64,000 nt of DNA from Acidobacteriota bacterium (GCA_011523845.1 WTFV01000150.1:32521-96520), one strand, 5' to 3'; shown: positions 13,646 to 36,547, counted from the first letter of the stretch. The notes: generated from the letters alone by a model not told the origin. Program-made: numbers and translations.

Positions 13646-13690
13646 CTACGCCTCCCGCTTTCCCGGTTGCCGCCCGGTGTCGACGATCAC
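13646..13690 (-). pseudogene. Relic of a vapC (PIN) toxin gene: only the first 5 codons are recognisable
   Basis: GTG overlapping the vapB stop (GTGA, as in the intact pair at 32509-32512) encodes M-I-V-D-T (compare MIIDTS of intact VapC). It then diverges and stops after 14 codons. Confidence 0.6.
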
Positions 13691-14006: not shown

Positions 14007-14747
14007 TCATGTCTTCAACACCACGACGTCCTCGTCGAGGCCCTGCCGGCAGAGCTCCAACCGCGGATGGCGGCTGACGCCACCGACGGACAGCGTCGAG
14101 CCCAGCGGGTAGAAGGACGCCCCGTCGACGAGCCCGCGCAGCGGGTATTCCCGGCGACCGCTGCTCAGCAGACCGGCTTCCAGCAACCACGGGCCGACCG
14201 CATCACCGGACGCGACGACCTTCTCCGCAGGCGAGAAGACTCCCCGGCGCCTCGTCTCCACGAGAACGCCCCACTCGACGCACGATCGGACGACCCGCTG
14301 CACGGCGCGCGCCACCGTGGTCCGCTCGCCCCAGGACTCGGCCATGCGCCGTGCGATCTGCGACAGGGCGGCGCTTCCCTGGAGGGCCAGCAGCCGGCCG
14401 GTGGTCGCCGCCACGTCGCGGAAGAACGGATAGGTCGCCAGGCACATGCCCCAGTGCAGCGGGAGCCGATCGCGTCCGGTTCGGCCGGCCAGCAGGGTGA
14501 GTGCGTCGTCGCGAAGCGGCACCGCGACGTCAGGCACGGCCATCCAGACGTGCAGCAGCACGGTCATGGTCTTGCCCCGCGCGCTGTGGGGGCCGTCGCC
14601 GGCCACCTGCCCGTCGAGAAGCCGTGCGACCTGCGCCCGGGTCTCCGCCGCGGACAGCCCCTGGGCCGTCCACTCGGCCGTCGCGTCCAGCCAGTCCAGG
14701 CGGATCTTCCGGTCGAACCCGATGATGCGGCGCGTCGTCCCGGACAT
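14007..14747 (-). CDS. BREX-associated protein, BrxA-like by position (terminal gene of type 3 loci); function not verified
   Basis: 246-aa ORF from MSGTTRRIIGFDRKIRLDWLDATAEW... Its start overlaps the pglZ stop (TGATG, 1-nt overlap at 14747). Helical, no motif I can name with certainty. Confidence 0.6.
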   Translation of the reverse strand: MSGTTRRIIGFDRKIRLDWLDATAEWTAQGLSAAETRAQVARLLDGQVAGDGPHSARGKTMTVLLHVWMAVPDVAVPLRDDALTLLAGRTGRDRLPLHWGMCLATYPFFRDVAATTGRLLALQGSAALSQIARRMAESWGERTTVARAVQRVVRSCVEWGVLVETRRRGVFSPAEKVVASGDAVGPWLLEAGLLSSGRREYPLRGLVDGASFYPLGSTLSVGGVSRHPRLELCRQGLDEDVVVLKT

Positions 14748-18562: not shown

Positions 18563-18686
18563 TACCGCATCGCCTCACTGAGCCAGTCTCCGACGGCACG
18601 CTGCTCCCACTCCACGTACTCGCGGGGAGTTCGCCAGAATACCCTCCAAGCCTCATTGAGCAGCAGTCGACCAGATCCCTTCGTTT
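18562..18686 (-). pseudogene. Displaced 3' end (38 codons + stop) of the HExxH gene, cut off by the IS insertion
   Basis: GC-rich in-frame tail ..TKGSGRLLLNEAWRVFWRTPREYVEWEQRAVGDWLSEAMR* with no start codon. Its TAA overlaps the ATG of the AlbA_2 gene (TAATG). It joins in frame to 22092 when 18687-22091 (3405 nt) is removed. Confidence 0.8.
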
Positions 18687-18709
18687 GGGGATTATATACC
18701 GTCCTAGCC
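18679..18709. repeat. Left target-site duplication (cttcgttt, 18679-18686) + left terminal inverted repeat (18687-18709)
   Basis: IRL is ggggattatataccgtcctagcc. The reverse complement of IRR is ggggattatataccatcctagcc (22/23 match). Confidence 0.9.
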
Positions 18710-18819
18710 TAACGCTATCTCCCGAATATGCATTAGTTTATCCTGGCTGTCGTCGAGAACGGTCAACATCGGCACATGTTCGACGCAGCGCTGTCACCGG
18801 TTGTCGAGCCGTGCTCAAT

Positions 18820-19053
18820 TCAAGATAGAATGACAATTCCCCCCCCATGTATATTTCCAGTACGGTCACCGAGGCTGAATTGAACCTTAACACAGTGACC
18901 GTCCCAACCGTTACCTTCAACCTCAACATCATCAACGGCCAGCCCAATTGGTTTCTTAATGTGTTGCACACCTGCTTTCTCTCTTTTGGGTAGGTGGAAC
19001 CCTAGCACGAGCTTTGCCAGCATGTCAAGATTTCTAGCGTGCGCAGTCAGCAC
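18820..19053 (-). CDS. Hypothetical cargo ORF (77 aa), weak
   Basis: Track ORF in the AT-rich element, divergent from 19087..19668. No recognisable motif, and a competing ORF 18738..18971 overlaps it. Confidence 0.25.
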   Translation of the reverse strand: MLTAHARNLDMLAKLVLGFHLPKREKAGVQHIKKPIGLAVDDVEVEGNGWDGHCVKVQFSLGDRTGNIHGGGIVILS

Positions 19054-19086
19054 GCCGATTGAGAACCTGGACTCACGCTACTTGTA

Positions 19087-19668
19087 ATGGACAAATTCTC
19101 AAAACTAGAGTACACTCTTGAGATGAATTTCTCTGCTTTGCCAATTCGTTGGGGTGAACTTCTCTCGACTATCCTTCCTGGTGCTTGGGCATTGACGGCC
19201 ATTCTTCCGTATTTGCCGGAATTTACGGAGTGGCTATCTCAAGGCTCTCTAGCACAGGCGATGGTTATAATTGCAGCGGCAACACTCTTGGGCGGTTCTA
19301 TTAGTGGCTTCACTCGTTTTACTTGGGAATATGGTCTTTTTGCGTTTAGTGATTTCAAAGTGAAACCACTTTCTCTAGTGGTTACTGACTCAGAGAAGAT
19401 GAAATTGTATGAGTTTTTGTTGGACAATTCTTATAAATGGGTTGGGTGTCACGCCAATACTGGGTGGGCGACACTTTTGGTTTTGTTGAGTCGACTGCAA
19501 CGCTGCCCTTCCGAATTGGGAATCATAGAACTTGCATTATCTGTTGCGGTTGTGATATTATTTACAGCTTCGTATGTCCAATGGTGGATATACGTAGACC
19601 ATATGAATACTGCATTTGGCAGCAACGGAGGAGAGCATGTTCAGGAACGTACCACAGACGGGGTCTAG
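19087..19668 (+). CDS. Hypothetical integral membrane protein (about 4 TM), IS cargo
   Basis: 193-aa ORF with hydrophobic segments LLSTILPGAWALTAILPYL, AMVIIAAATLLGGSISGF, GWATLLVLLSRL and IIELALSVAVVILFTASYVQWWIY. Confidence 0.6.
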   Translation: MDKFSKLEYTLEMNFSALPIRWGELLSTILPGAWALTAILPYLPEFTEWLSQGSLAQAMVIIAAATLLGGSISGFTRFTWEYGLFAFSDFKVKPLSLVVTDSEKMKLYEFLLDNSYKWVGCHANTGWATLLVLLSRLQRCPSELGIIELALSVAVVILFTASYVQWWIYVDHMNTAFGSNGGEHVQERTTDGV

Positions 19669-19831
19669 GATTAAGGCCATCACATCTACGAGAGAATTCA
19701 AGCTAGGTGATGAGGGTACCTTGCGGGCACCGCTGGCAGACTACTACGTAGATCGCGCCGAGGATTTATTTGAGGCTGAATTCTTCGGTCGAATCATAGT
19801 AGTTCGTCGGGGTGACGTTGAGTTGACCTAA
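19637..19831 (+). CDS. Hypothetical small protein (64 aa), IS cargo
   Basis: ATG after GGAGGAG (aacggaggagagcATG): MFRNVPQTGSRIKAITSTREFKLGDEGTLRAPL... It overlaps the end of the membrane-protein gene. Confidence 0.5.
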   Translation: MFRNVPQTGSRIKAITSTREFKLGDEGTLRAPLADYYVDRAEDLFEAEFFGRIIVVRRGDVELT

Positions 19832-19877
19832 GATTCTGAACAGGGCTAGTGCGTGGCGATCCACTGGCTCTGTTGTC

Positions 19878-20813
19878 TTACTTCGCCGGTCGTGCCGTTG
19901 AAGAAAGGCCGTTCTCTCGAATAAGGTCCTTGTACCGCAATCTCTTGTCCTCAGCCAGAAACACCATCACCTGCATCTGCTCAATCGTATCCAGCGGCCG
20001 CTGGTTGTGCCGACCCTCGAATTCCTTGACATAGCGGTCCAAGTGCTTCGGGCTCATTTTGTGGTAGACCCCAATATAGCCACGCTTCATCATGCTCCAG
20101 AATGACTCCATGCCGTTCGTATGAGCTTGCTCCCTGACGTATTCTCCCGTCGAATGAGATACAGCCTCGCGATTCGGAACACCACTGTAAGTTGTCGCTG
20201 TATCTGTGTAGACCTTGGTCCCATCTTCCACATTCTCTTGAATGAAACCTTTGAGAGTCCGACCGTCGGTATTCTCAACTACCTTCGCTCTGACCCGACC
20301 CGTCCCTCGTTCCTTCATCCCAACGACAGCCGTCTTGTTGACTGGTCCTCGACCCTCCTCCTGTTTACGCTTCCACGCGTGCTTGTTCTTCGCCTTGCCA
20401 CCGAAATACCCTTCATCTACTTCAACAGCGTTCTCAAAATCACCTGCCTCTTCGTCCCGCCAGGTCTCCCGAATCCGATGCGCCAGATGCCACGCTGTCT
20501 TTTGGGTCACGCCCAGGTCCCGATGCAACTTCATCGAGGACGTCCCCTTGAGCCCAGTTGCCAGAAGGTAGAACGCCAGCGCCCAGGTCTGGAGACCCAG
20601 GTTGGAACCCTGCATGACCGTCCCAGTCTTGACGCTGAAGTGCTTCCGGCAATCTCGACACCGATAGGGCATCGGCTTTCGATTCTCGACCTTCCGAATA
20701 TTCAGCGAGCCGCACTGCGGGCACGCTATACCGTTAGGCCAGCGTGTTTCGATGAACCACTGCTCCGCGGCTTCCTCGGTGGCGAACATGCGCACGACTT
20801 CCATCAGGGTCAT
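19878..20813 (-). CDS. IS1595-family transposase (N-terminal Zn-ribbon + ISXO2-like DDE domain)
   Basis: MTLMEVVRMFATEEAAEQWFIETRWPNGIACPQCGS...YRCRDCRKHFSVKTGTVMQGSNLGLQTWALAFYL...VEVDEGYFGG...VYTDTATTYSG...HSTGEYV...HTNGMESFWSMMKRG. The longer track ORF (to 21074) runs through the tRNA and is rejected. Confidence 0.9.
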   Translation of the reverse strand: MTLMEVVRMFATEEAAEQWFIETRWPNGIACPQCGSLNIRKVENRKPMPYRCRDCRKHFSVKTGTVMQGSNLGLQTWALAFYLLATGLKGTSSMKLHRDLGVTQKTAWHLAHRIRETWRDEEAGDFENAVEVDEGYFGGKAKNKHAWKRKQEEGRGPVNKTAVVGMKERGTGRVRAKVVENTDGRTLKGFIQENVEDGTKVYTDTATTYSGVPNREAVSHSTGEYVREQAHTNGMESFWSMMKRGYIGVYHKMSPKHLDRYVKEFEGRHNQRPLDTIEQMQVMVFLAEDKRLRYKDLIRENGLSSTARPAK

Positions 20814-20977
20814 GCCCTTGCGCCAGTGCTTGCCGGGTGCGTTTCGTGCCACTGCGAGCCTCCTAGCCAGTCTAGGGGAAAGATATCGCAGTTGACAGTC
20901 CTCGACAAGCTGTTCTGGTACAGGTTTTGCTTGACTTGCAGCGGGCGGACCGGACAGACTTCGTGGCGGTGGAGGGG

Positions 20978-21061
20978 TGTGGGCGACGGGATTCGAACCC
21001 GCAAGACCTGCTGGCCAGCGGCTTTCTAGGCCGCCGCGTATTCCAGTTCCGCCACGCCCAC
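20978..21061 (-). tRNA. Class II (long variable arm) tRNA, anticodon loop CUAGAAA = apparent anticodon AGA; Leu/Ser-type body, A73, no encoded CCA
   Basis: Hand fold: GTGGGCG-TG-GCG-GAACTGGAATA-CGC-G-GCGGC-CTAGAAA-GCCGC-TGGCCAGCAGGTCTT-GCGGG-TTCGAAT-CCCGT-CGCCCAC-A. 7-bp acceptor stem, T8, A14, G18G19, canonical T-loop. Confidence 0.65.
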
Positions 21062-21460
21062 GCTGCTCCGCCATCTACTAGCTCTCATCCCTCTACCTCC
21101 TTGCCCAACATGGGCTTTGACCGTTCAATTCATTCTAGCAGAATCCTCGTGATGGTGATTGGTTTCAAGGCGAAGAAACGGCAAATGACAGGTTTCTGTC
21201 AGCGACGCCCTGTTAGCTTGACATTCATGCTTGATCTGTGGAACGCTACTCCTTGCCACGCGATTCGTGTACGACCCGACGCCGGGTCGCCCACCAAATA
21301 CAAGACTGCCCGTACGGGCAGGAATAGGTGGGGATCCCGCATGTACGTGCGCGAATCGTGTGGCAACTGGCCCGGTGACCAATTCCGGGCTGGCCCGTTG
21401 GCGTCCGTCGTCCAGGGTTTCGGTTGTCCGGAAACTCGGCGCTGGAAAGGACGTGCCACA

Positions 21461-21829
21461 ATGTTCCTTAACAGTCTACTTTATAGTGGGATTGCAGTTA
21501 TTATCGTGGTGGGTGCATATTTGTTACTTGATGGCAGAGACTTCTCTATGTCCAACTACTACTACCAAATGGGCAGAGACGATATATTGGCTGGACAGGA
21601 GTATCCTCCAGGTAGTATTTCGTGTGGAGAGTTGCCTGATGTTATTCAGCGCGTTGTAGATGAGCAGATGAGTAGTGGGGTCAATTTGGACCGTATTCGT
21701 GGCAGAATTGACGTTCAGTTTGATATGGTGAAGAATAGATGCGGAATGGGTCCAACTCGAATAGAGGGTAGTGGTTTGCCGCTAACACCCGAGGATAGAC
21801 GAAGGCGACTGCTGGAGGGTCTCCGTTAG
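21461..21829 (+). CDS. Hypothetical protein with N-terminal TM helix (122 aa), IS cargo
   Basis: MFLNSLLYSGIAVIIVVGAYLLLDGRDF...; the internal ATG of the 20927..21829 track ORF where AT-rich coding begins. Confidence 0.5.
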   Translation: MFLNSLLYSGIAVIIVVGAYLLLDGRDFSMSNYYYQMGRDDILAGQEYPPGSISCGELPDVIQRVVDEQMSSGVNLDRIRGRIDVQFDMVKNRCGMGPTRIEGSGLPLTPEDRRRRLLEGLR

Positions 21830-21880
21830 TGCTTGACTTGCGTGGTAGAATGTTGGCGGTCGAAATCAGGAGGTAGTGTG

Positions 21881-22054
21881 ATGCCGTCAAAGCTCAAGAT
21901 ACCACCCCGCATCCCGGACACTCCGGAGAACATCGCCCTAGCTTGTATGCAAGGTCCACCGAAAAAGAAATGGCGCCATCTGGAAGAGTCGGGGTTGGTG
22001 GCTGATGACCCTTCGCTCGAAGAGTACGAGGAGAAGGAGCCTTCTCGAGAGTAG
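21881..22054 (+). CDS. Hypothetical small protein (57 aa), IS cargo
   Basis: ATG after AGGAGG (aggaggtagtgtgATG): MPSKLKIPPRIPDTPENIALACMQGPPKKKWRHLEESG... Confidence 0.45.
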   Translation: MPSKLKIPPRIPDTPENIALACMQGPPKKKWRHLEESGLVADDPSLEEYEEKEPSRE

Positions 22055-22060
22055 TGGGTG

Positions 22061-22091
22061 GGCTAGGATGGTATATAATCCCCCTTCGTTT
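22061..22091. repeat. Right terminal inverted repeat (22061-22083) + right target-site duplication (cttcgttt, 22084-22091)
   Basis: ggctaggatggtatataatcccc followed by cttcgttt. The IRR supplies the last 6 codons and the TAG stop (GDYIPS*) of the truncated HExxH gene. Confidence 0.9.
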
Positions 22092-23100
22092 CCCGTCCGA
22101 CGATGTCGCAGTCCAGCGCGCGCGTACCCTCGAAAGCCAAGCCCTCAACTCGGCTGACGAGCTCTATTGGGAAGCAGCGTCGGTACTCTGGGGACGCCTC
22201 GCTGCCGCTCAACCCAAGGTACTCCTCCCACCGGCGCTCAATCGCGGCCCGCTCTTCATCAAAGCCGAGGCGTTCCAAGGCCAGAAGCATAGCCGTCATG
22301 CGCGCCGCGTCGGGTGGATGAACCGTGGGTGTCACGAGCGGAACCTCGAAGGGGTCTGCACCCACACTGGCCGCGAGGTGAAGGTGCGACCACGCAAACG
22401 CCGGACCGGCCATGTAGACGGCGTAGAGGTCACAGAAGAGTTCAATCGCCCACGAAAGCCAGCAGCCGATCCACGTCATCAAGTATTGTTTGAAGGTCTC
22501 CGGGCCTAGCCCAGCGTCCTCTTTGCGTAGCTCGCCCGCGAGGTACCCGTGGGCGTCGCTCACGGCTTCGACATGCCGCTTCTGAAAGCCCTCGAGACGC
22601 GCATCGTCTTCGAACTCCAGCAGTGAGTGCGCGAGCTCGTGGTAGAGATCCGGCAAGTGCAGCAGGAACCGCCCCTCTGCCAGCGGCACACAGACGAGCC
22701 GGAGGTCGGGGTACGTGTGGAAGTACCGCTGCGAGGCACAGGAGACCACAGGGGTTGGCAGTGGATAATGGATCTCTCCGGCCAGACGATCAGCGATCTG
22801 GTTCATCCAGCGATCTTCCGCGTTCCATCGGCACAGAGCGGTGACTGCAACCGACTCAAGGTGGTCTAGCTCACCCCGCACCCGACGAAAGAGGCGCAGG
22901 CGCTCCCGCTGATTGTCGGACTCCCTGAGTTCCGGACGATCGCGCAAGAGGCGAAGGCGCTTGCCGACTATCTTCAGGCGGTCGCGACATGCGACCTCGA
23001 GAGCAGCGACCTCCCGCCCGAGTCCGGCTGGAATCAAGTCGCACAACTGCCGGGTGCGCTCCAGCAACTGGGACACCGCCCCCTCGAAGTACTCGTTCAC
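22063..23100 (-). CDS. HExxH-motif protein (putative zincin-like), last gene of the Argonaute cassette; C-terminally truncated by the IS (345 aa now, 377 aa reconstructed)
   Basis: GTG start overlaps the upstream stop (GTGA 23097-23100). VNEYFEGAVSQLLERTRQL...; LHLPDLYHELAHSLL (H154-E-x-x-H158). Ends ..DIVGRETK + GDYIPS* encoded by the IS end. Confidence 0.75.
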   Translation of the reverse strand: MNEYFEGAVSQLLERTRQLCDLIPAGLGREVAALEVACRDRLKIVGKRLRLLRDRPELRESDNQRERLRLFRRVRGELDHLESVAVTALCRWNAEDRWMNQIADRLAGEIHYPLPTPVVSCASQRYFHTYPDLRLVCVPLAEGRFLLHLPDLYHELAHSLLEFEDDARLEGFQKRHVEAVSDAHGYLAGELRKEDAGLGPETFKQYLMTWIGCWLSWAIELFCDLYAVYMAGPAFAWSHLHLAASVGADPFEVPLVTPTVHPPDAARMTAMLLALERLGFDEERAAIERRWEEYLGLSGSEASPEYRRCFPIELVSRVEGLAFEGTRALDCDIVGRETKGDYIPS

Positions 23101-23462
23101 GTCCCAACGCCCCTCATCTTGGCGAGGGCTTCGGTTCGTCGCTCTTCCAGTCGTCGTGCGAGTTCTCGCAGCTTGTCCACGACTTCGGGGTCGACTGTGG
23201 TCGACAGCAGGGCGCGGCCTACGCATTCCCATTCCTTGCGGGCGCTCGGGTCCGCGCCACCGATGAGCATCCCCAGCCAAGCCGTGCGGAGGTCTGGTGG
23301 CGGAGCTACCGCAACACCGACCAGCAGTTCGCCGAGCTCCCGACGGGATGCATCTGTCCGTACGTCCGCCGTGGAACTCAGCCCGAGGATAACCTCGTCG
23401 ATGAGCTCGCCGTAGTCTCGCACTCGCTGGTACACGTTCGAGTGGACACCGATGTCGCTCAT
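23097..23462 (-). CDS. Hypothetical helical protein (121 aa) coupled to the Argonaute gene
   Basis: ATG overlaps the Argonaute stop (ATGA 23459-23462), preceded by GAGGAGGTGG. MSDIGVHSNVYQRVRDYGELIDEVILGL... Confidence 0.7.
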   Translation of the reverse strand: MSDIGVHSNVYQRVRDYGELIDEVILGLSSTADVRTDASRRELGELLVGVAVAPPPDLRTAWLGMLIGGADPSARKEWECVGRALLSTTVDPEVVDKLRELARRLEERRTEALAKMRGVGT

Positions 23463-25849
23463 GCCACCTCCTCGGCGGTCTCGCCGCCCACCACCGCCGC
23501 ATCTGCGAAATCGACCGCGTCTACGTCGTACTCTCCCGCCGCGGCCGCAAGGATGCGGTCGTTCAGCTTGATGGTGATCGGGTACCGGGTACAGCCCTCG
23601 GGCTGCGTCCAGGTCAGCGCAGTCAGGGAGTAGAGATCCTCCAGTGCCTCGGAAAAGGAAAGCGTGCCGTCGACCATGATGACGTGCAGCGGGTGGGCGG
23701 TGCCTTGACGGAGAAAAGGGTAGCCGGTCGAGCAGACGTACGCTTCCTGATCGCCGACGTAATATGTGGCGCCGACACTCGGGTTGTCCCCGAGCAACCC
23801 TCCACGGCCATTCGGCCGGACATCGTACAGGCGAAGCGGTACGGGTGACGACTTTGAAATTTCGATGACCGCGTAGCCGGTGTCGGGTGCGAGGCAGCCC
23901 TCTGAGCGAAGTTGGCGGATTGCACGACGGACACCGTCCAGCTCCGAGGGCCACGCCCGCCCGTCGCGGTGGACTACGACCTTGGAAAGCGGGGCGCCAC
24001 GAGCCCCCGCTTCCCTGCGCAATACCTCCACAAGATACGTCGACATCTGGGCCGCGAGCAGTCGCTCCTTCTGGCGAGACGTGTGGACGTCCGACCGGAT
24101 GTTGCTACCGTGCGCGCCGACGACCAGGAGACCGGCACTGTTGTTCTTTACGTCCACCCCGACCGTGACGTCCGCGTGAAGTGGAGTCGCAAGGACAAAC
24201 GGCCATCGCTGATTCGTCAGGAGCAGCTTCGCGATCACGACGTTACGCAAGTAGCCGGCCAGCTTTCTTCGAAGTGCCGGAACAGGCCCATAAACGACGT
24301 GACCGTCCTTGGCTCGCTCCTCGCGATAGGTGTGCCGTGGAACGTCGCTGTGGATGACGGTAGCTCGGACGTCGTGCTGTTGCCGAAGCTCCCGGACGAC
24401 CATCGCGGCAAGTTGGTCCTCGTCGCGGTTCTGTCGTCCGACGGTACGGTGCACCATGACTAGCGCATATCCGGGTCGTGAGCACTTGGCCGCCGTCGCA
24501 GCTCGCACTGCAAGAGCCTGGCGTACGAACGTCCGCTGGCCACGATCGGCATAGGGCACAATGATGGGCTTGTAGCCGCCGGGTTGAGGGAAGAACTCGT
24601 CGACAGCCTTGGAGAGATCCTCAATGAGCCGCGCGCCGATCGTATCGTAGATGCTCTCCGGAAGAATGAGATACTGCCGGTCGAGCGGCGCGGACTCATG
24701 AAAGCCCACTGTTTGGTCCCTGAGGAGCTCCAGCCTGCGGCTTCCGAAGTCGTTCGGCCTCGCTTGAACGGCTCCCCGCGTACCGCGAGCAGAAAGGACC
24801 GTATTCTTGCCGAATGCGAGATCGGGCAACTTGAAACCTTGGAGTGCGACCCGCAGTGGCTCGGTGGAGACGCGCACGCGTGCGTTTCCGAATTGAAGCG
24901 CGCGAAGGTACCGATCCACGAAGGCTCGGGTTTGGTTCCGGCGTTGATGGGGAGGCAGGATGGTTCTGCCGTGCTGGCCCGCAACCTCCTTGCTATTCGT
25001 GCGGAACACGGGATAGCACAGTGGCGCGGGCGCCGCAAGCTCAGCGCCCCGATTGTTCAGATAGAGAACGGCCGCAGAATCGGCAGGTAGGTTACCCAGA
25101 TCCGACGGAAACGGTCGGCGCGCCTGATCGAGAATGTACTCGAGCAACGACCAAGTTCTCCCCTTCGTGACGAAGCGGTATTCCTGTACGTTCCTGTCGG
25201 CCAGGGCGTGAAGATGAACCTCGTACCAGTCTTGGCCGAAGCGGTACACGCAGTTGCGACCCTTCCAGCGGGCGGCGAATTCGTTGCGTGCCAGCCGCGC
25301 CGGGAGCGGACGGGCGCTGACGTAGCAGTGGTGCACGTCGACACAGAGACCAATGCCCGCCTCGGGAGTTAAGACAGGCCGCACGCTGAAGCCCACGTAA
25401 CGATGGATGCCGCGGTCGTTCTGCGCCGGATTGCGCTCGAAGAACGGGCGTCCAGATTGCAGTTGCCAAAGCCGTGCATCGCGTCCGAGCGGGGCCTGGA
25501 CCAGGAAGCGAAGAAACCGCAGGGAGATCGCGTCATCCGGCCCTCGCTTCGAGTAGTCAAGGTCGACTCCTTCGTCACGAGGCCGAAGCTGAACGACGAC
25601 GCGCACAAGCTCGACTTCCGAGGGAAGCGTGGCGACATCTTCGGAAACGACGACGAAAGGGATATCGCCGCGTTCGATTACAAGTACAGCCTTCCTGAGC
25701 GAATAGCTGAGCCGCCGTTCGAGCGCTTGGCGATTTTGGAAGTACTCGGCTTGGTCTCGGCGCAGGCCGGCGACCTCGACGAGCCTGTACCGCGTCGACA
25801 ACTCGCCCAGGTTCGTGATGGAATAGATGTTCGTTTCAAGCTGCCTCAT
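23459..25849 (-). CDS. Long prokaryotic Argonaute (pAgo, 796 aa) with PAZ-like, MID and PIWI regions and an apparent DEDD catalytic tetrad
   Basis: From MRQLETNIYSITNLG. PIWI signatures: TVGVD566V, QKE595RLL, VVVHRD629GR, LTWTQPEG..YPITIKLND764RILA. MID/PIWI linker YLRNVVIAKLLLTNQRWPF. PAZ-like NCVYRFGQDWYEVHL...WSLLEYIL...CYPVF. Confidence 0.85.
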   Translation of the reverse strand: MRQLETNIYSITNLGELSTRYRLVEVAGLRRDQAEYFQNRQALERRLSYSLRKAVLVIERGDIPFVVVSEDVATLPSEVELVRVVVQLRPRDEGVDLDYSKRGPDDAISLRFLRFLVQAPLGRDARLWQLQSGRPFFERNPAQNDRGIHRYVGFSVRPVLTPEAGIGLCVDVHHCYVSARPLPARLARNEFAARWKGRNCVYRFGQDWYEVHLHALADRNVQEYRFVTKGRTWSLLEYILDQARRPFPSDLGNLPADSAAVLYLNNRGAELAAPAPLCYPVFRTNSKEVAGQHGRTILPPHQRRNQTRAFVDRYLRALQFGNARVRVSTEPLRVALQGFKLPDLAFGKNTVLSARGTRGAVQARPNDFGSRRLELLRDQTVGFHESAPLDRQYLILPESIYDTIGARLIEDLSKAVDEFFPQPGGYKPIIVPYADRGQRTFVRQALAVRAATAAKCSRPGYALVMVHRTVGRQNRDEDQLAAMVVRELRQQHDVRATVIHSDVPRHTYREERAKDGHVVYGPVPALRRKLAGYLRNVVIAKLLLTNQRWPFVLATPLHADVTVGVDVKNNSAGLLVVGAHGSNIRSDVHTSRQKERLLAAQMSTYLVEVLRREAGARGAPLSKVVVHRDGRAWPSELDGVRRAIRQLRSEGCLAPDTGYAVIEISKSSPVPLRLYDVRPNGRGGLLGDNPSVGATYYVGDQEAYVCSTGYPFLRQGTAHPLHVIMVDGTLSFSEALEDLYSLTALTWTQPEGCTRYPITIKLNDRILAAAAGEYDVDAVDFADAAVVGGETAEEVA

Positions 25850-26777
25850 CGGCCTTCTCCCAGCAGATCTTCTGGTACGCGCAACGCTGACAGACGTTGG
25901 GCCATGCCGTGACCGCGAAGTCTTCGGCGCGGAGGTCGCCGTTCTTGAGACCGTCCGTCGCAGCGAGCATCTCTGTCGCGCTCGCCGCCACGTAGTCCTC
26001 AAGCTCGTCGAAGTCCGCTGAATCCAAGGCATACTCGTGCTCGATTCCTGAAAGCAGTTGCGCCTCGACGAGCCGGTAGTCTGTCGGCGTAAACTCCGTC
26101 AGGACCGGCGGAAAGTCGCGGTGTGGGGTGCAGCGCGACAGCGACAGCGCGTACAGGGCCAATTGGAGCCGGTAGTCGCGAGTACCGAACGAATGGACTT
26201 TCCAGTCTACGATGAGCGGGGGCGCTTTCTCGTTGAATGCAATCACGTCGGGGACCGCGACAACCGACACGCCGGCGAATTTGAACTGCAGAGAACGCTG
26301 GGCGACCACGTACGAAGCGCGCTTCAGGGCGGCTCGCAGCCCGTCCATCTTGAACACGTTGTCAATCGCCGTTTGGATGTCCTGCCACGCCTGCGCAATC
26401 TCCTCCTGTCGTATGCCGTGGCCGTACTCGATCGCGCGGAAGGCTGCAACTGCGTCGTTCTTGGAAAGCTCCAGCGCAGGCTCGTGGATGCGATTGTTGA
26501 TCGCGAAGTCCAGCTCCCGCTCGAAGCAGACTTTGGCGGCAGTGCGGAGGTCCGCCTTCGTGATTCGCTGGCCCCGCCTCAAAGCCAGCACGAGTCTCTC
26601 GCTGAGGATTCTGTCGACGAGCCTGCCGCGCCACCCGCTCACGCTCTGGAGCTTCGAAAGGAGGTAGGCCGTCCGACGCTGCCGATCCTTGGCCACGGCG
26701 CTTGCAAGGCAATTCTTGAAGAACCAGCTCCGCTGGCACTGCCGAAAAGCACGCGCCGCCGAGAAGGACCACCTCAT
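25836..26777 (-). CDS. Cas4-like PD-(D/E)XK nuclease with four-Cys (Fe-S) signature
   Basis: 313 aa. C14 ... D177 (AVPDVIAF), D191-W-K193 (LIVDWKV), Q205xxxY209 (QLALYAL), C296-x2-C299-x5-C305. Its 3' end overlaps the pAgo start by 14 nt, and its ATG overlaps the XRE stop (ATGA). Confidence 0.8.
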   Translation of the reverse strand: MRWSFSAARAFRQCQRSWFFKNCLASAVAKDRQRRTAYLLSKLQSVSGWRGRLVDRILSERLVLALRRGQRITKADLRTAAKVCFERELDFAINNRIHEPALELSKNDAVAAFRAIEYGHGIRQEEIAQAWQDIQTAIDNVFKMDGLRAALKRASYVVAQRSLQFKFAGVSVVAVPDVIAFNEKAPPLIVDWKVHSFGTRDYRLQLALYALSLSRCTPHRDFPPVLTEFTPTDYRLVEAQLLSGIEHEYALDSADFDELEDYVAASATEMLAATDGLKNGDLRAEDFAVTAWPNVCQRCAYQKICWEKADEAA

Positions 26778-27127
26778 CTCCCCGACCTCCGCCCTTGGCG
26801 CGCGCGCAAGAACTCAAGGTACTCCGCAAGGGCCTCCTCCTCGTCAGGGGTCACGTCGCCGAAACGCGCTAGCCCCGTTGGAGCTAGCTCCCGTTCGGGA
26901 AAGCCCGGAACGGGGTAACCAGCGAGACGCATCGCCTTGGCGTACGAGACACGGTACAGCTCGCTAAGCTTGTGCAGGATGACAGGCGAAGGCTGACGGA
27001 TCCGACCGTGTTCGAGCTGGCTCAGGTAGGCGTTGGAGACATCCGTCTGTTCCTCCACCGCGCGTAGCGACATGGAGCGCCGCTCTCGTGCGTTTCTCAG
27101 GAAACCTGCCAAGGCTCCGTGACTCAT
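26774..27127 (-). CDS. XRE-family helix-turn-helix regulator, first gene of the Argonaute cassette
   Basis: LRNARERRSMSLRAVEEQTDVSNAYLSQLEHGRIRQPSPVILHKLSELY is a canonical HTH_3 pattern. 117 aa. Confidence 0.85.
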   Translation of the reverse strand: MSHGALAGFLRNARERRSMSLRAVEEQTDVSNAYLSQLEHGRIRQPSPVILHKLSELYRVSYAKAMRLAGYPVPGFPERELAPTGLARFGDVTPDEEEALAEYLEFLRARQGRRSGR

Positions 27128-27133
27128 GCGCTA

Positions 27134-27167
27134 ATCATGTCAAGCGCCGCAAAATATGTCAAGCGCC
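27134..27167 (-). promoter_or_regulatory. Putative promoter/operator of the Argonaute cassette: two 12-bp direct repeats GGCGCTTGACAT, 19 bp apart
   Basis: The minus strand reads GGCGCTTGACATattttgcGGCGCTTGACATGATtagcgcATG. The distal TTGACA lies 17 nt before CATGAT, which ends 6 nt before the ATG (possible leaderless transcript). The repeats could be XRE operators. Confidence 0.4.
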
Positions 27168-27446
27168 ACGCCGGTGCCGCTGGCGAATCACGACTCGCCG
27201 CAGATTCGAGTGGGGCCCAGACTTCCAGGCAACAGCCCTCGGTGCCGTGCACCCAGCCGGCACGTCCGCCCGACAGCCCGCTCAACCGGTTCGAGACAAT
27301 CGAGCCCGCCGCCGATTTCCACGCCAGCGGCGGCCTCAGCCGGGCTCAGGACGAACGGGTGCTCTCTCTTCCGCGACTCGTCGTCGAGTGCCAAGGCCGA
27401 ATCCGTCAAGCGTCAGCGCCAAGAAACGTCAGCTCCACACCCCTGT

Positions 27447-30227
27447 CTACGCACGCTGCACGGCTGCGCGCGTCATGGCCTGGTCGTACCACATCAGCAG
27501 CTTCGGATCCTCCTGGAGCACGTCCTCCGGGATCTTGCGAGCGACCTCGACGATCGTGGCGTAGTCCCGAGCCTGCCATGCCTTGCGGAAACCGGCGCGG
27601 ATCGCTTCCAGGCGGAACAGCTTCAGGCGTCGCTCCGTGGAATGCCGGTACTCGTCGAACTCCCGGAGCAGGCCGCGGGTTCGCCACTCGTCGAGGTCGC
27701 TCGCCTTGCGGGGATCCGGGACGTACCAGCGGTCCTTCGCCTTGGCGCGAAGGGCGAACGCGTCCTTCGGCAGGTTGCGGAGCTCCTTGAAGTTGCCGGA
27801 CAGGTAGGCGTGAATCTGGCTCGGCACCTCGCCTCGGCCATCGTACCGCAGGAAGTTCTGCTCCAGGAACGCCGACAGCTCGATCATCCGCTCGTGCTTC
27901 TGCCAGCCGCCGAGCTCGCGGATGAACTGCGGATGGATCTCCTGGAAGGTCTGCGGCTTCCTCCCAAGTTGTTGGCGCAACCACTGGATGGCGGTCTCCT
28001 CGTCCCTGACGAAGAGCTCGAGCTGCACCAGTTCGCGAGCCGCCAGCCGTCTGGAATCGTACTCCACGACCTGCTCGGGCAGGAAGAACATGCCGTCCCG
28101 CTCCGGAAAGCGTTGCGTGAGCCCTTCGTGGAATTCAGTGGCAGAGAGCGGAACGGTGACACCGCGTTGCACGTGGAAGGCGACCATGCGGTCGAACAGC
28201 AGGTAGCTCTGGCGCTCGGCGATGACCTCGGCCCGCCCTTCCCTGGCCACGAATACCGGAAGCTGGCGCATGTGGGTGCTGACGAAGTCCCAGGCGCCGT
28301 CCGCGGTCCCGGCCTGCGGTCGGAAACGGTCTTCCAGCCCGCCGTTCGGCTTGTAGGCGGAGATCACCAGATCCTGCTTGACCGCGGTGCTCGTGACCTG
28401 CCGGTAGGAACCCTGCTGCTTGTCGAGCGTGCGGACGTCGGCGACCACGAAGCCGGCCGCCAGCATGGCTTCCTGGATGGCGTTCCAGATCGCATTCCTA
28501 GAGTTGTGGAAGACGACGGTGATCCACCGGCCGGGTTTTAGGACGCGACGGTACGCTTCGAAGCAGTGCTGCATCAGGCGCTGGTAATCGACGACGTCCT
28601 TACCCTTCGGCCGGTCGACGATGGCCTCGGTCTCGCTACGCGTGCGGGTGCGGTGCCAGGATTCGACGAGGTGGTTGAGGTCGGCGTAGAAGATGTTCTC
28701 TCCGAAGGGCGGATCCGTGAACACGTAGTCGACGGAGTCGTCGGGCAGGGCGTTGGCGCCGCAATCGCTGGTCGAGATCATCGCGAGATCCGGGCGCGAA
28801 ACTGTCGGCTTGAAGGCCCTTGCGAGACGCTGCAACTTGCCATCGAGAATATACCATGGACACACTTCTGCAATTTGCGAGGCCACATAGTAGACTCCCG
28901 ACAGTTGACGATTCACCTGAGAAAAGTGGGAAGGGCCGTAGCGATTCAGTACCGACATACCCCAAATTGCCTGCTCCACGAAGAACAAGAGCATGCTTCT
29001 CAATCGGTTGTCTTCGCATTCATCTACACGCCGCCACATCGCCGCCAGCACATGCGCCGCCCGCGGCAGGAACAGGTGGTGCACATGCGTGAAGCCCTTC
29101 GGCGCCAGACGCGAGCCGTGGTACATCTCGTCGATGGGAAACGCGTCGGTTGGGACCTCGGACGGCAGCGGGAGACCGGCGATGCGGTCGAGAACGCCCA
29201 GATCGGCAGAGTCCGGTTCCTTCTCGTAGCGCGCATCGCCCACGCTGTAGTTGATCAGCACGGGCCGGAGACGAATACGTTTCCACGGCCGGCCCGACGC
29301 GGGATCGGCGAGCGTTTCGAACGACCGCACGAAGTTGTTCTTGGTCAGCTTCACGGCGCAGTGCGGACAGGGAAACGTGGATCTCGTGCGCCGGGTGGCC
29401 TTGTCGAGCGCCTCGTCGAAGAACACGACTTCGCCCGCGCAGTCCGGGCAGGAGAAGACCTCGCTCCACACCGTGTAGTTGATTCGCCCCGTGGTCCGCC
29501 CGTCGGCGTGGAGCGTGTCGTACATCCAGCCGATCTCCTCTTCGACCTCCGTCAGGAGTTCGGAGGCCGCCTCGCGGAACGCGGTGACGTCGAACGGCAG
29601 GTTGTAGTTGGCGGCGATGAAGGTGGCGGCCGGCGACAGATCGCCGAGAATCACGCGGCGGGCGCCCCATGCCGGCGGGTTCCGCTCTTCCCCCTTCCAG
29701 CGTTGTTCGAGGTCCTTCCGATAGGCGGGCGGCGCCGTGCCGCACCATTGCGCGGCGACGCCGGTCATGCCGGAGCCGCAGAATCCGTCCAGAACGATGT
29801 CACCCGGTCGCGTGTAGTGGAGGATGGACGGGACGATCGCCAGGTGCGGCACCTTGGTGTGGTACCCGTGCGCCCGATAGAGAGGGTCGGTCTTGCCGGC
29901 GCTGACGTCGACGGCGAACGGCTCGCGGTGATACGGCTCGTCGGGATCGTAGTGACGGCCGTGGCGCTCGACGAACTGCGCCAGGAACGGATTCGGACAA
30001 GCCGTGTAGTACGGCGGATCGGACAGCCGCAGGATGGCATCATCATCTGCCATCGGAAAATCGGGTCGTTGCCGCAACTCGGGTAGCTTCTCCTTCAGTC
30101 GCGCCAGGAAATACTGCCGGCGCGCCTCCTCCGACTCGAAGGTCAACCCGAGGCACTCCACGCGTGCCGATTCGCCCGTCGCGGCGGACTCCGACAGGAG
30201 ATCGGGCGTCGGATTACGGCTGGCCAC
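27447..30227 (-). CDS. pglXI: BREX type 3 DNA methyltransferase PglXI-like (N6/N4 methylase family)
   Basis: 926 aa. SD70PPYY, LDGFCGSGMTG (AdoMet motif I-like), Cys4 ribbon CPDC...CPHC, and a second catalytic-type tetrapeptide FTD505PPFG. Confidence 0.75.
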   Translation of the reverse strand: MASRNPTPDLLSESAATGESARVECLGLTFESEEARRQYFLARLKEKLPELRQRPDFPMADDDAILRLSDPPYYTACPNPFLAQFVERHGRHYDPDEPYHREPFAVDVSAGKTDPLYRAHGYHTKVPHLAIVPSILHYTRPGDIVLDGFCGSGMTGVAAQWCGTAPPAYRKDLEQRWKGEERNPPAWGARRVILGDLSPAATFIAANYNLPFDVTAFREAASELLTEVEEEIGWMYDTLHADGRTTGRINYTVWSEVFSCPDCAGEVVFFDEALDKATRRTRSTFPCPHCAVKLTKNNFVRSFETLADPASGRPWKRIRLRPVLINYSVGDARYEKEPDSADLGVLDRIAGLPLPSEVPTDAFPIDEMYHGSRLAPKGFTHVHHLFLPRAAHVLAAMWRRVDECEDNRLRSMLLFFVEQAIWGMSVLNRYGPSHFSQVNRQLSGVYYVASQIAEVCPWYILDGKLQRLARAFKPTVSRPDLAMISTSDCGANALPDDSVDYVFTDPPFGENIFYADLNHLVESWHRTRTRSETEAIVDRPKGKDVVDYQRLMQHCFEAYRRVLKPGRWITVVFHNSRNAIWNAIQEAMLAAGFVVADVRTLDKQQGSYRQVTSTAVKQDLVISAYKPNGGLEDRFRPQAGTADGAWDFVSTHMRQLPVFVAREGRAEVIAERQSYLLFDRMVAFHVQRGVTVPLSATEFHEGLTQRFPERDGMFFLPEQVVEYDSRRLAARELVQLELFVRDEETAIQWLRQQLGRKPQTFQEIHPQFIRELGGWQKHERMIELSAFLEQNFLRYDGRGEVPSQIHAYLSGNFKELRNLPKDAFALRAKAKDRWYVPDPRKASDLDEWRTRGLLREFDEYRHSTERRLKLFRLEAIRAGFRKAWQARDYATIVEVARKIPEDVLQEDPKLLMWYDQAMTRAAVQRA

Positions 30228-32091: not shown

Positions 32092-32125
32092 GCCGTCGTT
32101 CCGAGACGATTCGCATCCTGCCGGA

Positions 32126-32512
32126 TCACGCCGCCTCGACGTCGGTGCGAGCGAAGTCGTCGCCCTTGAACAGCAGCGGTTCGCCGGTGGCCTTCGCCAA
32201 CGCATAGGCGAGACAGTCGCCGAAGTTCAACGCCGCCCGATGATTGCCCTTGCCGAATCGCCGCCAGGCGCGGCGGGCGACCTCGACGTGTTCCGGCGTG
32301 ACCGGCGCCAACTCGATCTCCGCCTTGTCCAGAAACATGTCGAGTTGACGTCCCGCCGCGGCTCCCGCCCTGCCCTCGACAACCATGGTTGCTTCGAGCA
32401 GGGCGACCGCCGACATGCGCCTGGGCCACGCCGCCGAGATTGCCTGTTCGTAGTGCGTCGCGTCCGATTCGCCGAACAGGATGGCCATGATCGCCGACGT
32501 GTCGATGATCAC
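32126..32512 (-). CDS. vapC: VapC PIN-domain toxin
   Basis: MIIDTSAIMAILFGE... (PIN Asp4) ...FGDCLAYALA. GTG start overlaps the vapB stop (GTGA). Confidence 0.9.
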   Translation of the reverse strand: MIIDTSAIMAILFGESDATHYEQAISAAWPRRMSAVALLEATMVVEGRAGAAAGRQLDMFLDKAEIELAPVTPEHVEVARRAWRRFGKGNHRAALNFGDCLAYALAKATGEPLLFKGDDFARTDVEAA

Positions 32513-32769
32513 TTCGGCAGTCCCCGTTCGTCATAGAGGAGGTCTCCGTGGTCGACGGCCGAAGGTCCGGGTCCCATCAGCTTGGCGCAGCGTTGTCCGA
32601 TGGCGTGGAGCTTCTCGGCCAGCTCGTCCGCGTTGCGCAGGCGCTTCTCCCGCTCCAGACGCTCGCGCAGCGCGACGGTGACTGCACCGGTCATCGTTTC
32701 GCCGGTCAGCCGAGCGAGCTCGCGGGCCAGCCGACAGGTCTCCTCGTTCTTGATGTTGAGGCTCATCAC
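32509..32769 (-). CDS. vapB: VapB antitoxin (PSK/Rv0623-like family)
   Basis: MMSLNIKNEETCRLARELARLTGETMTGAVTVALRERLERE... It sits immediately upstream of the PIN toxin, between brxC and the AlbA_2 gene. Confidence 0.9.
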   Translation of the reverse strand: MMSLNIKNEETCRLARELARLTGETMTGAVTVALRERLEREKRLRNADELAEKLHAIGQRCAKLMGPGPSAVDHGDLLYDERGLPK

Positions 32770-32808: not shown

Positions 32809-35800
32809 CTACTCAAGCACGATCCGTACCTTCGCGGCGTCCAGCCCTTTCGCCTTCTCGTCGACGTAGTCGCCGAACCGCTTCTTCAACTCGCCGGGCG
32901 TTGCCGGCGCGCCGCCCGGGAAGAGCGCACCGCGCAGTTCTTCGGGGTTGACGACCACCTTCGAGAAACCGGACAGCACTTGCGCGACCGCGTCGACGAA
33001 GTCGTGGTGCAGCTCGTCGGGGAGCGTTCGGGACGCGATGAACGCCTGCACGGAAACCCGCTGCGCGGAGCCGAGCAACTCCAACTGTTCACGGGTGGTC
33101 GGGTCGGCGAGGTTGGCCAGCAGGATGTCGGTCCACGCCGCCAGTAATACGTCCAGTTCGCCGTCCAGGCCGTACAGCACGTTGCCCGCCGCTACGTCCA
33201 CGGGCTCGGCCGACGGCCGGAAGGCGCAGTGGGGACACTCGGCCGCGGCGTCCAGCTCCTGCGCGGTCAGCGCGGAGCAGCTCTTGAGGGCCGTCAGCCG
33301 GCTCAGTAGGTCGTCCAGTTGTTGCCTGGGCAGCAGGTCGATCGCGGCCAGGGCCTTGAGTTTCTGCAGCCGCCCGTCCGCGAGCAGCCGGCCCTTGCGC
33401 CGATCGTGGTCGACGCCGAGCCGCGCCCGCGTGTGCAGGGCGAGGTAGGCGTCGACGTACGCGCGCTTCAGGTCGCCGAGCTCCTGCTGCGCCTGTCGGC
33501 GAAAGCCGGCGGCCGACCGCTGCACCGGATCGAGAAACCGGGCGACGAGGTCGTCCCGGACCTGCTTCAGTCTCCCTACCCACGCGTGGTCCGCAGGAAG
33601 CGCCGCCTCCGCCGCGGGGAAATACGACGCGGCGTTCGTGAAGTCCCAGACCAGCGCGTGCAAGGCTTCGACCTCCTCGAGCGCGTCCAGCCCGGTTCGT
33701 TGCGCCTCCACTTCCCGGCCGCTGTACGGGAAGTTCTTCAGGGCGCCGGGCGAGGAGAAAGCCTGCAGCGGCTCGAGGAAAGCCCTGGCCGCGTCCAGCC
33801 TGCCGCGCAGGTCACCGGTTGCGTGCTCGTCGAGGAGGTTTCGGCCCCAGAACTGAAAACCCGCCTGCAGCGCCTGCCGGGCCATCACCAGCCTGCCCAC
33901 GCGGGCGTCCACCGCCTTCTGCAGCTCCCGGACCGGCTCGTCCTTGCCCTGCGCAACGAGTTGCGCCATGCCCGGCGTCAGCGCCAGCAGCTCGAAGAGG
34001 GCCGTCAGGGCCGGGACGTCCCAGTCCTTCGGGGACTCGATGTGCTTGAAGTTCACCAGGTCGGCGAGTGGCGCGGCGGCCAGCACCGACACGTCGGTCG
34101 CATCGAACTTCCTGCCGGGAATCGCGACGACCACGTGGCCGGAATAGACGAGGCTCGCCAGCACGACGACCATCCACTCGGGCTCCAGGCGATACGTGCT
34201 CGGCGCCATGTACTCGACGTCGTGAACTGAGTGAACGAGCTCGTCGCGGTTGAGGACCTGTCCCTGTCCCTTCCGCTCCAGCAGCTCGACTATGTGCTGC
34301 GCGTAGCGCGATCGGCTCGGATCGAGCTGGTCGCCGTCGAGCAGCTCCAGTGCGTCGAGCACCTTGCTCCCCTGCTGCGTCTTCCGGGGGCCGGCGATCC
34401 AGCGCAGCGCATCCTGCACCGCCTGCGGGCGACTGCGCGTGGTCCAGTAGACCGGAAACGCGGGGTACCCCGGCGCCTCGTCCTCGAAGTGCGCGGCCAG
34501 CGCCGCGGAGCCGACGGCGTTCACGACGTCCCGCACGTTGACCTGCGCATCCTCGGTCGCCGGCTTCCCCTTCACCCACCCGACGAGCGGCTTCGTCCGT
34601 CCCTGGTGCGTCACCTCGACGGCGGTGGTCATGTGCTCCTGGAGCCACTTCGTCAGGTCGCGCAGGAAAGCGTCCGCCTTCGCCTGGTAGACGTCCTTCG
34701 CGTGCCCCGACGCACGCGACGCCAGATCCAGCGCCGCCGCGCAGCCCTTCAACGCCTGGTGGAAGGCATCGTCCCGCCCCTTGAGCCGGAAGAACACCTC
34801 GTCCGCCTTCTTCTCGTCCCGGAAGCGCGGCGGCTCGTACGGCTGGATGAAGTAGAAATAGAAATCGCGCGGCGGCACGGCCGTCGACCGCTCGTTCGGC
34901 GCGCCGAAGAAGAGGTAGCCGAGCCGGGAGGCGCGGCGCTCGCGCCATTCGAGCTCGTGTTCCCAGATCCGGTAGCCGGTGACGTACGTCGCTTCCTTGC
35001 ACTCCAGGACACGGGTGAGCGCCTCGTAGTAGTAGCGGTCGAGCTGGGCGTCGTCGAGCGATTCGGCGCGCTTGTCGATGTGCGCGTCGTAGTCCTCCGC
35101 CTTATCGAGGTCGAGGTGGTACTGGCGGTTGTCCCGATTGAACGAGATGAACTGGCCGCTGACCGTTCGATGGATCTCCCGCAGCACGGTCTCGACCTGG
35201 GAGAGCAGGTCGTCGGCCGGCTCGCCGCCGAGGTCCTCGATGCCCGGCTGGTAGAGGCACAACGTGTCGCGGAGCTCTTCCGGCGTGGCGCCCAGCGGCG
35301 CGTGGATGTTGTTGTGCGTGAGCCGGTGCACCGACAGCGCGTCGACGATCCGCAGCGCCATCGGCATGTAGGCCGGCCGCGTGAACGCCTGCGCGATGCG
35401 GGACTCCAGGACCTGACTGCAGTCGATGACCGCCTTGATCTCCGGGACGGCGCGGAACGACGGATTCTCGCGCAGCGTGCGCCAGTACGAGTCGTAGGCG
35501 ATGAGGCCGGGACGGTCGGCGGGCGGCTCGTCGTGAACGATCCGGTTCATGGCGAGGGACAGCGTCTTGAGCACCTCGCGCTTCTCGATGACCGCGATCC
35601 GCTCGAAGGTGTCGATGAAGTCCGGATGCACCGGGAAGAGCCGGACGAACTCGTCCAGCCGCTCGTTCATGTTGCCGTAGAACCGGGTGAACGGCGCCAG
35701 GTACTCCCGGATCCGCGTCTGCTGCTCGCCCGTCTTCCTGAGCAGCCGCTCGGCCACGACGTGCTTGACGTCGGCCCGTGCGATGCGGATCTGCTCGAAG

Positions 35801-36516: not shown

Positions 36517-36547
36517 TTCCGTTCCAGTGGTGTGCCGACGACCAACC

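Follow-up and report, generated by a model that had tools for sequence, protein, structure and literature searches.

A Cas4-like nuclease as the dedicated partner of a PliAgo-type Argonaute in a conserved five-gene cassette: a candidate guide maker

An operon that joins genes for a nuclease, a helix-turn-helix (HTH) protein and a prokaryotic Argonaute (pAgo), with the nuclease gene directly preceding that of the pAgo, has already been reported by Lisitskaya et al. (2022, Nat Commun, PMC9360449). For two pAgos of this group, PliAgo from Pseudooceanicola lipolyticus (entries 7R8F-7R8K) and RslAgo from Runella slithyformis (WP_013921749), DNA-guided RNA cleavage was shown biochemically; PliAgo prefers a 5'-phosphorylated guide end, and RslAgo, a DNA-guided RNA nuclease, is most active with guides of 14-20 nt (PMC9360449). 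The MID pocket of PliAgo, RHSY, is non-canonical, and its H and Y are absolutely conserved (PMC9360449). Herein, we describe a further system of this kind in a stretch of 64,000 nucleotides from an Acidobacteriota bacterium (GCA_011523845.1, WTFV01000150.1:32521-96520). The whole stretch is referred to as the window, and positions are counted from its first letter. The gene in question, gene 2 at 25836..26777 on the minus strand, encodes a predicted Cas4-family (ACE2-like) PD-(D/E)XK nuclease and lies directly upstream of a gene for a PliAgo-group pAgo.

Nucleases that accompany other pAgos were described by Bobadilla Ugarte et al. (2025, Mol Cell, PMC12094033). ACE1 carries a 4Fe-4S cluster, works as an endonuclease on single-stranded DNA (ssDNA), pairs with its pAgo as a heterodimer and trims the DNA guides bound by that pAgo (PMC12094033). 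ACE2 (APACE2) is characterised by a D-DxK motif, an arrangement of 1+3 cysteines, a mean length of 313 aa and an insertion relative to ACE1, and it goes with a second, non-cyanobacterial subclade of long-A pAgos (PMC12094033).

The open reading frame (ORF) of the window nuclease runs from an ATG start to a TGA stop and encodes 313 aa. A preliminary description of the gene, made from the sequence of the window, had placed the ORF exactly, leaving its minus strand unstated, and had pointed to a motif set of D177, D191-x-K193 and Q205xxxY209 together with four cysteines, C14 and C296/C299/C305. A script confirmed C14, D177 (after P176), D191-W192-K193, Q205xxxY209 and C296x2C299x5C305 in the translation, and further cysteines were found at C23, C84 and C216, none of them strictly conserved. 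A search of 5.8 billion proteins returned 492 relatives; when 1.84 billion cluster representatives were scanned exhaustively, 509 passed E<=1e-3 and 134 passed E<=1e-30. Conservation was assessed on 219 homologues, with identity down to about 28%, comprising 116 close homologues (>=45% identity) and 103 sequences from 50%-identity clusters (28-48% identity). Among the close homologues, C14, C296, C299, D177, D191, W192, K193, Q205 and Y209 were invariant, and C305 was kept in 115 of 116. D177, D191, W192, K193, Q205, C296 and C299 were likewise invariant in the 103 distant sequences, where C305 was found in 102, Y209 in 101 and C14 in 96 (the other seven being alignment gaps). The catalytic residues named in the preliminary description are therefore invariant or nearly so in the family, and its four cysteines are kept as well. 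Judged from these alignments, the motif pattern of the nuclease is beyond chance.

This conservation bears on the view that the nuclease is a structural, inactive accessory, which would bind the pAgo in order to stabilise it or to assist guide loading, with its own catalytic site unused. Some Cas4-family domains are indeed dead scaffolds, for example the nuclease-like domain of RecC. In addition, the ACE1-pAgo complex modulates activity (PMC12094033), which is in keeping with an accessory function. However, the strict retention of D177, D191, K193 and Q205, and the near retention of Y209, across all 219 homologues argues for selection for catalysis, and we consider an inactive accessory to be very improbable.

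The label 'Cas4-like', also given in the preliminary description, was borne out by two profile matches. Pfam PDDEXK_1 (PF12705), whose cut-off is 22 bits, scored 54.1 (E=2.8e-14), with residues 2-305 aligned to profile positions 1-246 of 247, and the pAgo-associated PADLOC model Aga_Cas4-like_Nuc (PDLC02406; profile length 308) matched residues 1-309 with E=1.6e-112. The full-length match to the latter and a pAgo_II neighbour are the two elements of the PADLOC class II test, and the nuclease has both. Of the two Pfam profiles to which the preliminary description had looked, PDDEXK_1 thus scored above its gathering threshold, whereas Cas4 (PF01930) reached only 15.4 bits, below its cut-off of 22.7, and aligned only at the C-terminal cysteine motif. 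The NCBIfam cas4 equivalog (TIGR00372) scored 18.4 bits, far below its cut-off of 65.

Sequence searches of the PDB with the nuclease alone and with a 39-sequence profile returned no chain at E<=1, the ACE1 entries 9IAB and 9IAC included; the link to Cas4-family structures came from fold comparison only. The AlphaFold2 model of the nuclease (pLDDT 89.5, pTM 0.87), which has a larger alpha-helical N-terminal half, was compared with the PDB by Foldseek. The matches were chain A of AdnA-AdnB (E=1.3e-7), MaACE1 (2.1e-7), Dna2 (2.6e-6), Exo5 (7.8e-5), Cas4 SSO0001 (1.7e-4) and AddB (1.3e-3), and CtACE1 and MGME1 were also matched. In several of the Fe-S 'iron staple' nucleases, a 4Fe-4S cluster is ligated by a single N-terminal cysteine together with a CX2CX5C motif at the C-terminus. 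The cysteines of the window nuclease (C14 and CX2CX5C) have the same spacing, which suggests that the protein may bind an Fe-S cluster, and DNA would be its substrate. Taken together, the profiles and the predicted fold indicate that the nuclease is a single-domain PD-(D/E)XK enzyme of the Cas4 family in the broad sense; it is best called Cas4-like, and not a Cas4.

The partner of the nuclease, gene 3 (23459..25849, minus strand), encodes a long pAgo of the PliAgo group with 796 aa. Its best solved relative was PliAgo (structures 7R8F-7R8K; E=4e-143 over residues 3-785), and it matched PADLOC pAgo_II (PDLC02382) with E=4e-271. When residues were mapped onto PliAgo, the DEDD tetrad was found complete, D566/E595/D629/D764 corresponding to D563/E592/D626/D762. 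The MID pocket reads R468/H500/V503/Y533 as compared with R467/H498/S501/Y530 in PliAgo, only the variable S being different. K568 and K761, mapped to published PliAgo residues, are also kept. These residues suggest that the window pAgo is a DNA-guided RNA cutter of the active type. The family retrieved with the nuclease includes the Runella slithyformis locus that encodes RslAgo (WP_013921749). The preliminary description had seen neither the active, RNA-cleaving type of the partner pAgo nor the five-gene cassette described below.

A reading of the locus as an RsAgo or long-B BPAN-type operon was rejected, because entries 7R8F-7R8K are PliAgo and because bAgaN, the nuclease of BPAN, is a two-domain D-EVK nuclease encoded downstream of inactive pAgos. 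The plasmid locus of RsAgo was sought in a plasmid collection and was not among the matches.

The stop codon of the nuclease (25838..25836) lies 14 nt into the pAgo frame, whose ATG is at 25849, in agreement with the 14-nt overlap given in the preliminary description. A Shine-Dalgarno-like stretch, GGGAGAAGG, is found directly upstream of this ATG. The pAgo reading frame continues upstream without a stop as far as an ATG at 26032; the start at 25849 is nevertheless supported, since in the 796-aa version the similarity to both PliAgo and the PADLOC pAgo profile sets in at residue 3. At its other end, the nuclease gene overlaps by its start codon the stop of the upstream HTH gene by 4 nt (ATGA). 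From this arrangement, the nuclease and pAgo genes appear to be translationally coupled. The 'stoichiometric co-expression' read from the overlap in the preliminary description goes beyond this, because a gene overlap implies translational coupling and not stoichiometric expression.

The genomic neighbourhood of the family was then compared across 80 loci from species-representative genomes, which were retrieved with the nuclease alignment and searched with all five window proteins, namely the HTH protein, the nuclease, the pAgo and the products of two downstream genes (genes 4 and 5). For the pAgo gene, the HTH gene and gene 5, the denominator is the number of loci with enough flanking DNA. 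A pAgo gene was found downstream of the nuclease homologue in 72 of 73 loci, immediately adjacent in 67 of them; the pAgo adjacency to which the preliminary description had attached weight thus extends to the homologues. In 72 of 77 loci, an HTH gene lay no more than 200 nt upstream of the nuclease gene. Gene 5 was present in all of the 68 loci in which it could be scored (68/68), and gene 4 was detected by tblastn in 45 of 68; the pAgo gene and gene 5 were always separated by a gap, whose median length of 389 nt is what gene 4 would occupy. The nuclease/pAgo junction showed an overlap of 4, 11 or 14 nt in 46 of 76 loci, and across loci, the identity of the nuclease to its window counterpart was correlated with that of the pAgo (r=0.77). 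The same five genes are given by the RefSeq annotation of Rhizobium and Runella plasmids. The hosts belong to Acidobacteriota, Planctomycetota, Chloroflexota, Proteobacteria, Cyanobacteria, Bacteroidota, Verrucomicrobiota and two archaeal lineages. A nuclease without a pAgo was found in a Truepera locus (L080), and homologues on Bacillus cereus plasmids (L003; about 23% identity, beside a HIRAN-domain gene) were without any pAgo.

The unit is accordingly a strictly syntenic five-gene cassette, which encodes an HTH protein, the nuclease, the pAgo, a protein of about 120 aa and an HExxH protein of about 377 aa. Within it, the nuclease is the dedicated partner of the PliAgo-type pAgo, and in bacteria and archaea alike, the two are almost always found together. 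The cassette is self-contained and horizontally mobile. Separately, 0.6-4 kb of extra DNA, possibly insertions, was observed between the nuclease and the pAgo in loci L010, L032, L056, L082 and L083.

The synteny also decides the question of whether the protein might be a CRISPR Cas4 engaged in spacer acquisition, or a housekeeping repair nuclease of the RecB/AddB type that stands beside a pAgo gene by chance. The motif set and the cysteine pattern are common to Cas4 and AddB, and the weak, partial matches to the Cas4 models point the same way. Against this, both Cas4 models scored below their cut-offs, no CRISPR-like array was found in the 64-kb window, and the immediate neighbours of the nuclease are the HTH and pAgo genes, with no cas neighbours such as cas1 or cas2. 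The absence of such an array from the window and of cas neighbours argues that the protein is not a CRISPR Cas4, and the linkage to a pAgo in 72 of 73 loci, in many phyla and in archaea, effectively refutes both versions of this explanation, to which we give next to no credence.

Given that the pAgo needs DNA guides derived from an invader and that its operon encodes a coupled and catalytically intact nuclease, it seems on balance probable that the nuclease makes or trims 5'-phosphorylated DNA guides for the RNA-slicing pAgo. PD-(D/E)XK nucleases leave 5'-phosphates, and this is the guide end that PliAgo prefers. ACE1, the only characterised analogue, trims the guides bound by its pAgo. A guide-processing role for the nuclease of this operon, which the preliminary description also raised, has, moreover, already been proposed by Lisitskaya et al. 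(2022, PMC9360449). In the scheme that we propose, one near-consensus promoter would drive the cassette, the nuclease would cut or trim single-stranded invader DNA into 5'-phosphorylated guides of 14-20 nt, these guides would be passed to the pAgo, and the guide-loaded pAgo would slice complementary invader transcripts. The nuclease would also form a physical complex with the pAgo, and the system would have a role in defence. The context of the cassette is that of defence, as it is nested in a type 3 bacteriophage exclusion (BREX) locus and has a G+C content below that of its flanks.

The main rival to guide making is an effector role. The pAgo would then sense and cut invader RNA, and the nuclease would act as a co-degrader that destroys invader DNA, or host DNA in abortive infection; the target-bound pAgo may recruit or activate it, and guide making would not be its task. 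This was the second possibility listed by Lisitskaya et al. (2022, PMC9360449), and it has a precedent in the bAgaN nuclease of BPAN, a non-specific DNase that is switched on once its pAgo has bound a target (Song 2023, PMC10620215; Liu 2026, PMC13535254). ACE1 was also speculated to degrade ssDNA invaders (PMC12094033). The strict linkage to the pAgo fits an effector as well as it fits a guide maker. However, the effector nucleases described so far go with catalytically inactive pAgos, whereas the window pAgo keeps the full DEDD tetrad. A DNA-guided pAgo needs guides from invader DNA in any case, and a DNA nuclease in its own operon is the simplest source of them. Moreover, Cas4-family enzymes such as Cas4, AddB and Dna2 process ends or ssDNA and are not bulk DNases. 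We therefore regard an effector role as rather unlikely.

Several points weigh against the assignment of the nuclease as a guide maker. Literature searches found no functional work on ACE2/APACE2 or on a nuclease of the PliAgo group. The nuclease family has no detectable sequence relation to ACE1 or to any solved protein, and the authors of the ACE1 study warn that their results are not transferable to the ACE2 clade (PMC12094033). PliAgo and RslAgo are active in vitro without the nuclease (PMC9360449), and since they work alone, the nuclease is not needed for slicing itself. Furthermore, the conserved genes 4 and 5 have no place in a simple guide-maker model. Finally, the window copy of the system may be non-functional or impaired, as its gene 5 is broken by an insertion sequence (IS) element.

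Gene 1, which opens the cassette, is located at 26774..27127 on the minus strand and encodes an XRE-type HTH regulator of 117 aa, with matches to Pfam HTH_31 and HTH_3 (E about 1e-10) and to PADLOC capH (E=3.9e-7). The region upstream of it (27128..27167, minus strand) holds a direct repeat and sigma-70-like boxes, and is the putative promoter and operator region of the cassette. The repeat, GGCGCTTGACAT, occurs twice (27167..27156 and 27148..27137). A -35 box, TTGACA (27162..27157), is separated by a 17-nt spacer from a -10 box, CATGAT (27139..27134). This was the sole sigma-70-like site in 21900..27500, with 10 of 12 consensus matches, a count of sites not above the shuffle expectation. The promoter is made credible by its position and conservation rather than by the site count. 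In 70 of 78 loci, which come from many phyla, the HTH gene is preceded by a motif that holds the -35 box, TGCTTGACAaa.ttAGCA, and many of the loci inspected have another, related copy, which overlaps the -10 box and extends as far as the start codon; the candidate operator has the form TGCTTGACA-N-TTAGCA. Since the -10 box ends 7 nt before the HTH ATG, a leaderless transcript is suggested. A conserved promoter with two putative operators thus looks like part of the cassette unit, and the HTH protein probably represses its own cassette through these operators.

Gene 4 (23097..23462, minus strand) encodes 121 aa, and there is a 4-nt overlap between its ATG and the pAgo stop. Its product matched no family in Pfam, PADLOC or NCBIfam. 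The gene is small and fast-evolving, and a weak, sub-threshold Pfam match, VMAP-M8 (E=0.004), was observed. The 5' part of gene 5 (22084..23100, minus strand; codons 1-340) has a GTG start that overlaps the stop of gene 4 (GTGA), and the current ORF runs to 22063. Homologues of gene 5 have about 377 aa, with an invariant HExxH motif (H154-E155-L-A-H158 in the window) and invariant E220, D224, H241, H261 and D264. The AlphaFold model of an intact homologue, P0269, had a pLDDT of 94.5, and a Foldseek comparison of this model with the PDB found no relative (best E=0.49). Gene 5 was also examined as a known metallopeptidase or CapP-like protease, and Pfam, PADLOC and NCBIfam returned nothing for it even at E<=10. 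At the level of motifs, we would guess that its product is a zincin-like metallopeptidase.

The window copy of gene 5 is split behind codon 340 by an IS element of 3397 bp (18687..22083), which has 23-nt terminal inverted repeats and an IS1595-type transposase gene (19878..21074, minus strand). The target duplication of 8 bp, AAACGAAG, is found at 22084..22091 and at 18679..18686, and the G+C content of the element, 47-58%, is lower than that of the cassette. The last 37 or so codons of gene 5 survive 3.4 kb away as a displaced 3' remnant (18565..18686, minus strand), which ends in GSGRLLLNEAWRVFWRTPREYVEWEQRAVGDWLSEAMR before the stop codon. The remnant was identified by tblastn with the C-terminus of P0269 (80% identity, E=2e-21), and its sequence was also read directly.

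Considering the conserved regulatory region and genes 4 and 5, we also weighed a view in which the five-gene cassette as a whole is the functional unit, an inducible RNA-targeting immune module. Through the two putative operators that overlap the promoter, the HTH protein would hold the operon silent. The HExxH protein of gene 5, perhaps together with the gene 4 product, would be a signal-responsive metallopeptidase that removes the repressor or licenses the system, modelled on ImmA/ImmR or CapP/CapH. The Cas4-like nuclease would then turn invader DNA into guides for transcript slicing. This view, with all of its steps, is in our judgement unlikely; the more limited proposal that the nuclease is a guide maker for the pAgo is the one that we favour.

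The type 3 BREX locus in which the cassette is nested spans 14007-37033, all on the minus strand, and comprises BrxF (36548..37033), BrxC (DUF6079; 32809..36564), PglXI (27447..30227), PglZ (14747..16759) and BrxA (14007..14750), with foreign genes nested among them. The cassette fills the interval between PglXI and PglZ, the expected place of BrxHII, and no BrxHII was detected among the genes of the BREX locus that were examined. The G+C content of the cassette is about 62% as compared with about 70% for the flanking genes, and falls further in the IS element. We considered the AlbA_2 and BREX genes on either side as members of the cassette and rejected them, because in the other loci they are absent from the conserved position and gave only scattered weak matches elsewhere.

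Further genes were observed in and beside the BREX locus. Two diverged Schlafen/AlbA_2 + HATPase_c_4 proteins, with 24% identity, are encoded within it at 16790-18562 and 30214-32205 (minus strand), and both match the N-terminal part of the PADLOC pAgo model PDLC02394. The gene at 16790-18562 starts 1 nt within the stop of the gene 5 remnant (TAATG). A VapC-type PIN toxin gene (32126..32512) and a gene for an Rv0623-like antitoxin or transcription factor (32509..32769), both on the minus strand, lie between BrxC and an AlbA_2 gene. Just outside the BREX locus is a gene for an RtcB RNA ligase (12249-13844, minus strand; Pfam E=7.5e-123). It may be a coincidence that an enzyme of RNA repair is encoded close to a defence system that cuts RNA.

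When compared with known systems, the window system is another example of the association that was published in 2022 and is encoded in PADLOC. The D-R operon of the PliAgo group (PMC9360449), which corresponds to PADLOC pAgo_II plus Aga_Cas4-like_Nuc, has the same order of HTH, nuclease and pAgo genes on the same strand, the same DEDD tetrad and an RHSY-type MID pocket, and no difference in kind was found. The Runella nuclease and the window nuclease share 33% identity. The window system has some local peculiarities, namely the S-to-V change at the third position of the MID pocket, the nesting in a BREX locus and the IS-broken gene 5.

The window nuclease appears to fit the description of ACE2, to which it is likened through the published account only: D-DxK, 1+3 cysteines and 313 aa are common to both, as is the association with a second, non-cyanobacterial subclade of long-A pAgos, and ACE2 has distant solo homologues in Bacillus, as does the family of the window nuclease. 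With ACE1 (MaACE1, 9IAC; CtACE1, 9IAB), it shares the association with a pAgo and the single-domain, Cas4-family architecture, and ACE1 was among its best fold matches, with template modelling (TM) scores of 0.58 (query-normalised) and 0.66 (target-normalised). However, the two show no detectable sequence similarity, and ACE1 has about 278 aa rather than 313. ACE1 is also restricted to cyanobacteria and partners DNA-guided DNA-cleaving pAgos, whereas the window family occurs in many phyla and in archaea with a partner of the RNA-cleaving type.

CRISPR Cas4 (SSO0001, 4IC1) and the nuclease domains of AddB, AdnB, Dna2 and Exo5 have in common with the window nuclease the RecB-type fold, the D...(D/E)xK...QxxxY motifs and the C...CX2CX5C cysteines. 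The window nuclease differs from them in its scores below the Cas4 cut-offs, in the lack of a CRISPR context and of a helicase fusion, and in its larger alpha-helical N-terminal half. bAgaN likewise belongs to the PD-(D/E)XK superfamily and is encoded in an operon with a pAgo. It has two domains with a C-terminal D-EVK motif, is Card1/Can2-like, acts as a collateral DNase and has not been described with an Fe-S cluster (Song 2023, PMC10620215; Liu 2026, PMC13535254). Whereas bAgaN is encoded downstream of a catalytically inactive long-B pAgo, the window nuclease has a single domain and a D-DWK motif, and is encoded upstream of a pAgo with the full DEDD tetrad. Collectively, these comparisons set the window nuclease apart from ACE1, from CRISPR Cas4 and from bAgaN.

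To the published association, the present analysis adds a quantified five-gene synteny, a conserved promoter and putative operator, a gene 5 product with an HExxH motif and a predicted fold unmatched in the PDB, the nesting in a BREX locus and the IS disruption. PliAgo-type Argonautes are, to our knowledge, the only prokaryotic Argonautes known as strictly DNA-guided RNA cutters, and they are under development as RNA tools. The co-encoded Cas4-like nuclease is the obvious candidate for their guide maker, and two further conserved proteins, along with what looks like a conserved promoter and operator, belong to the nuclease-pAgo unit.

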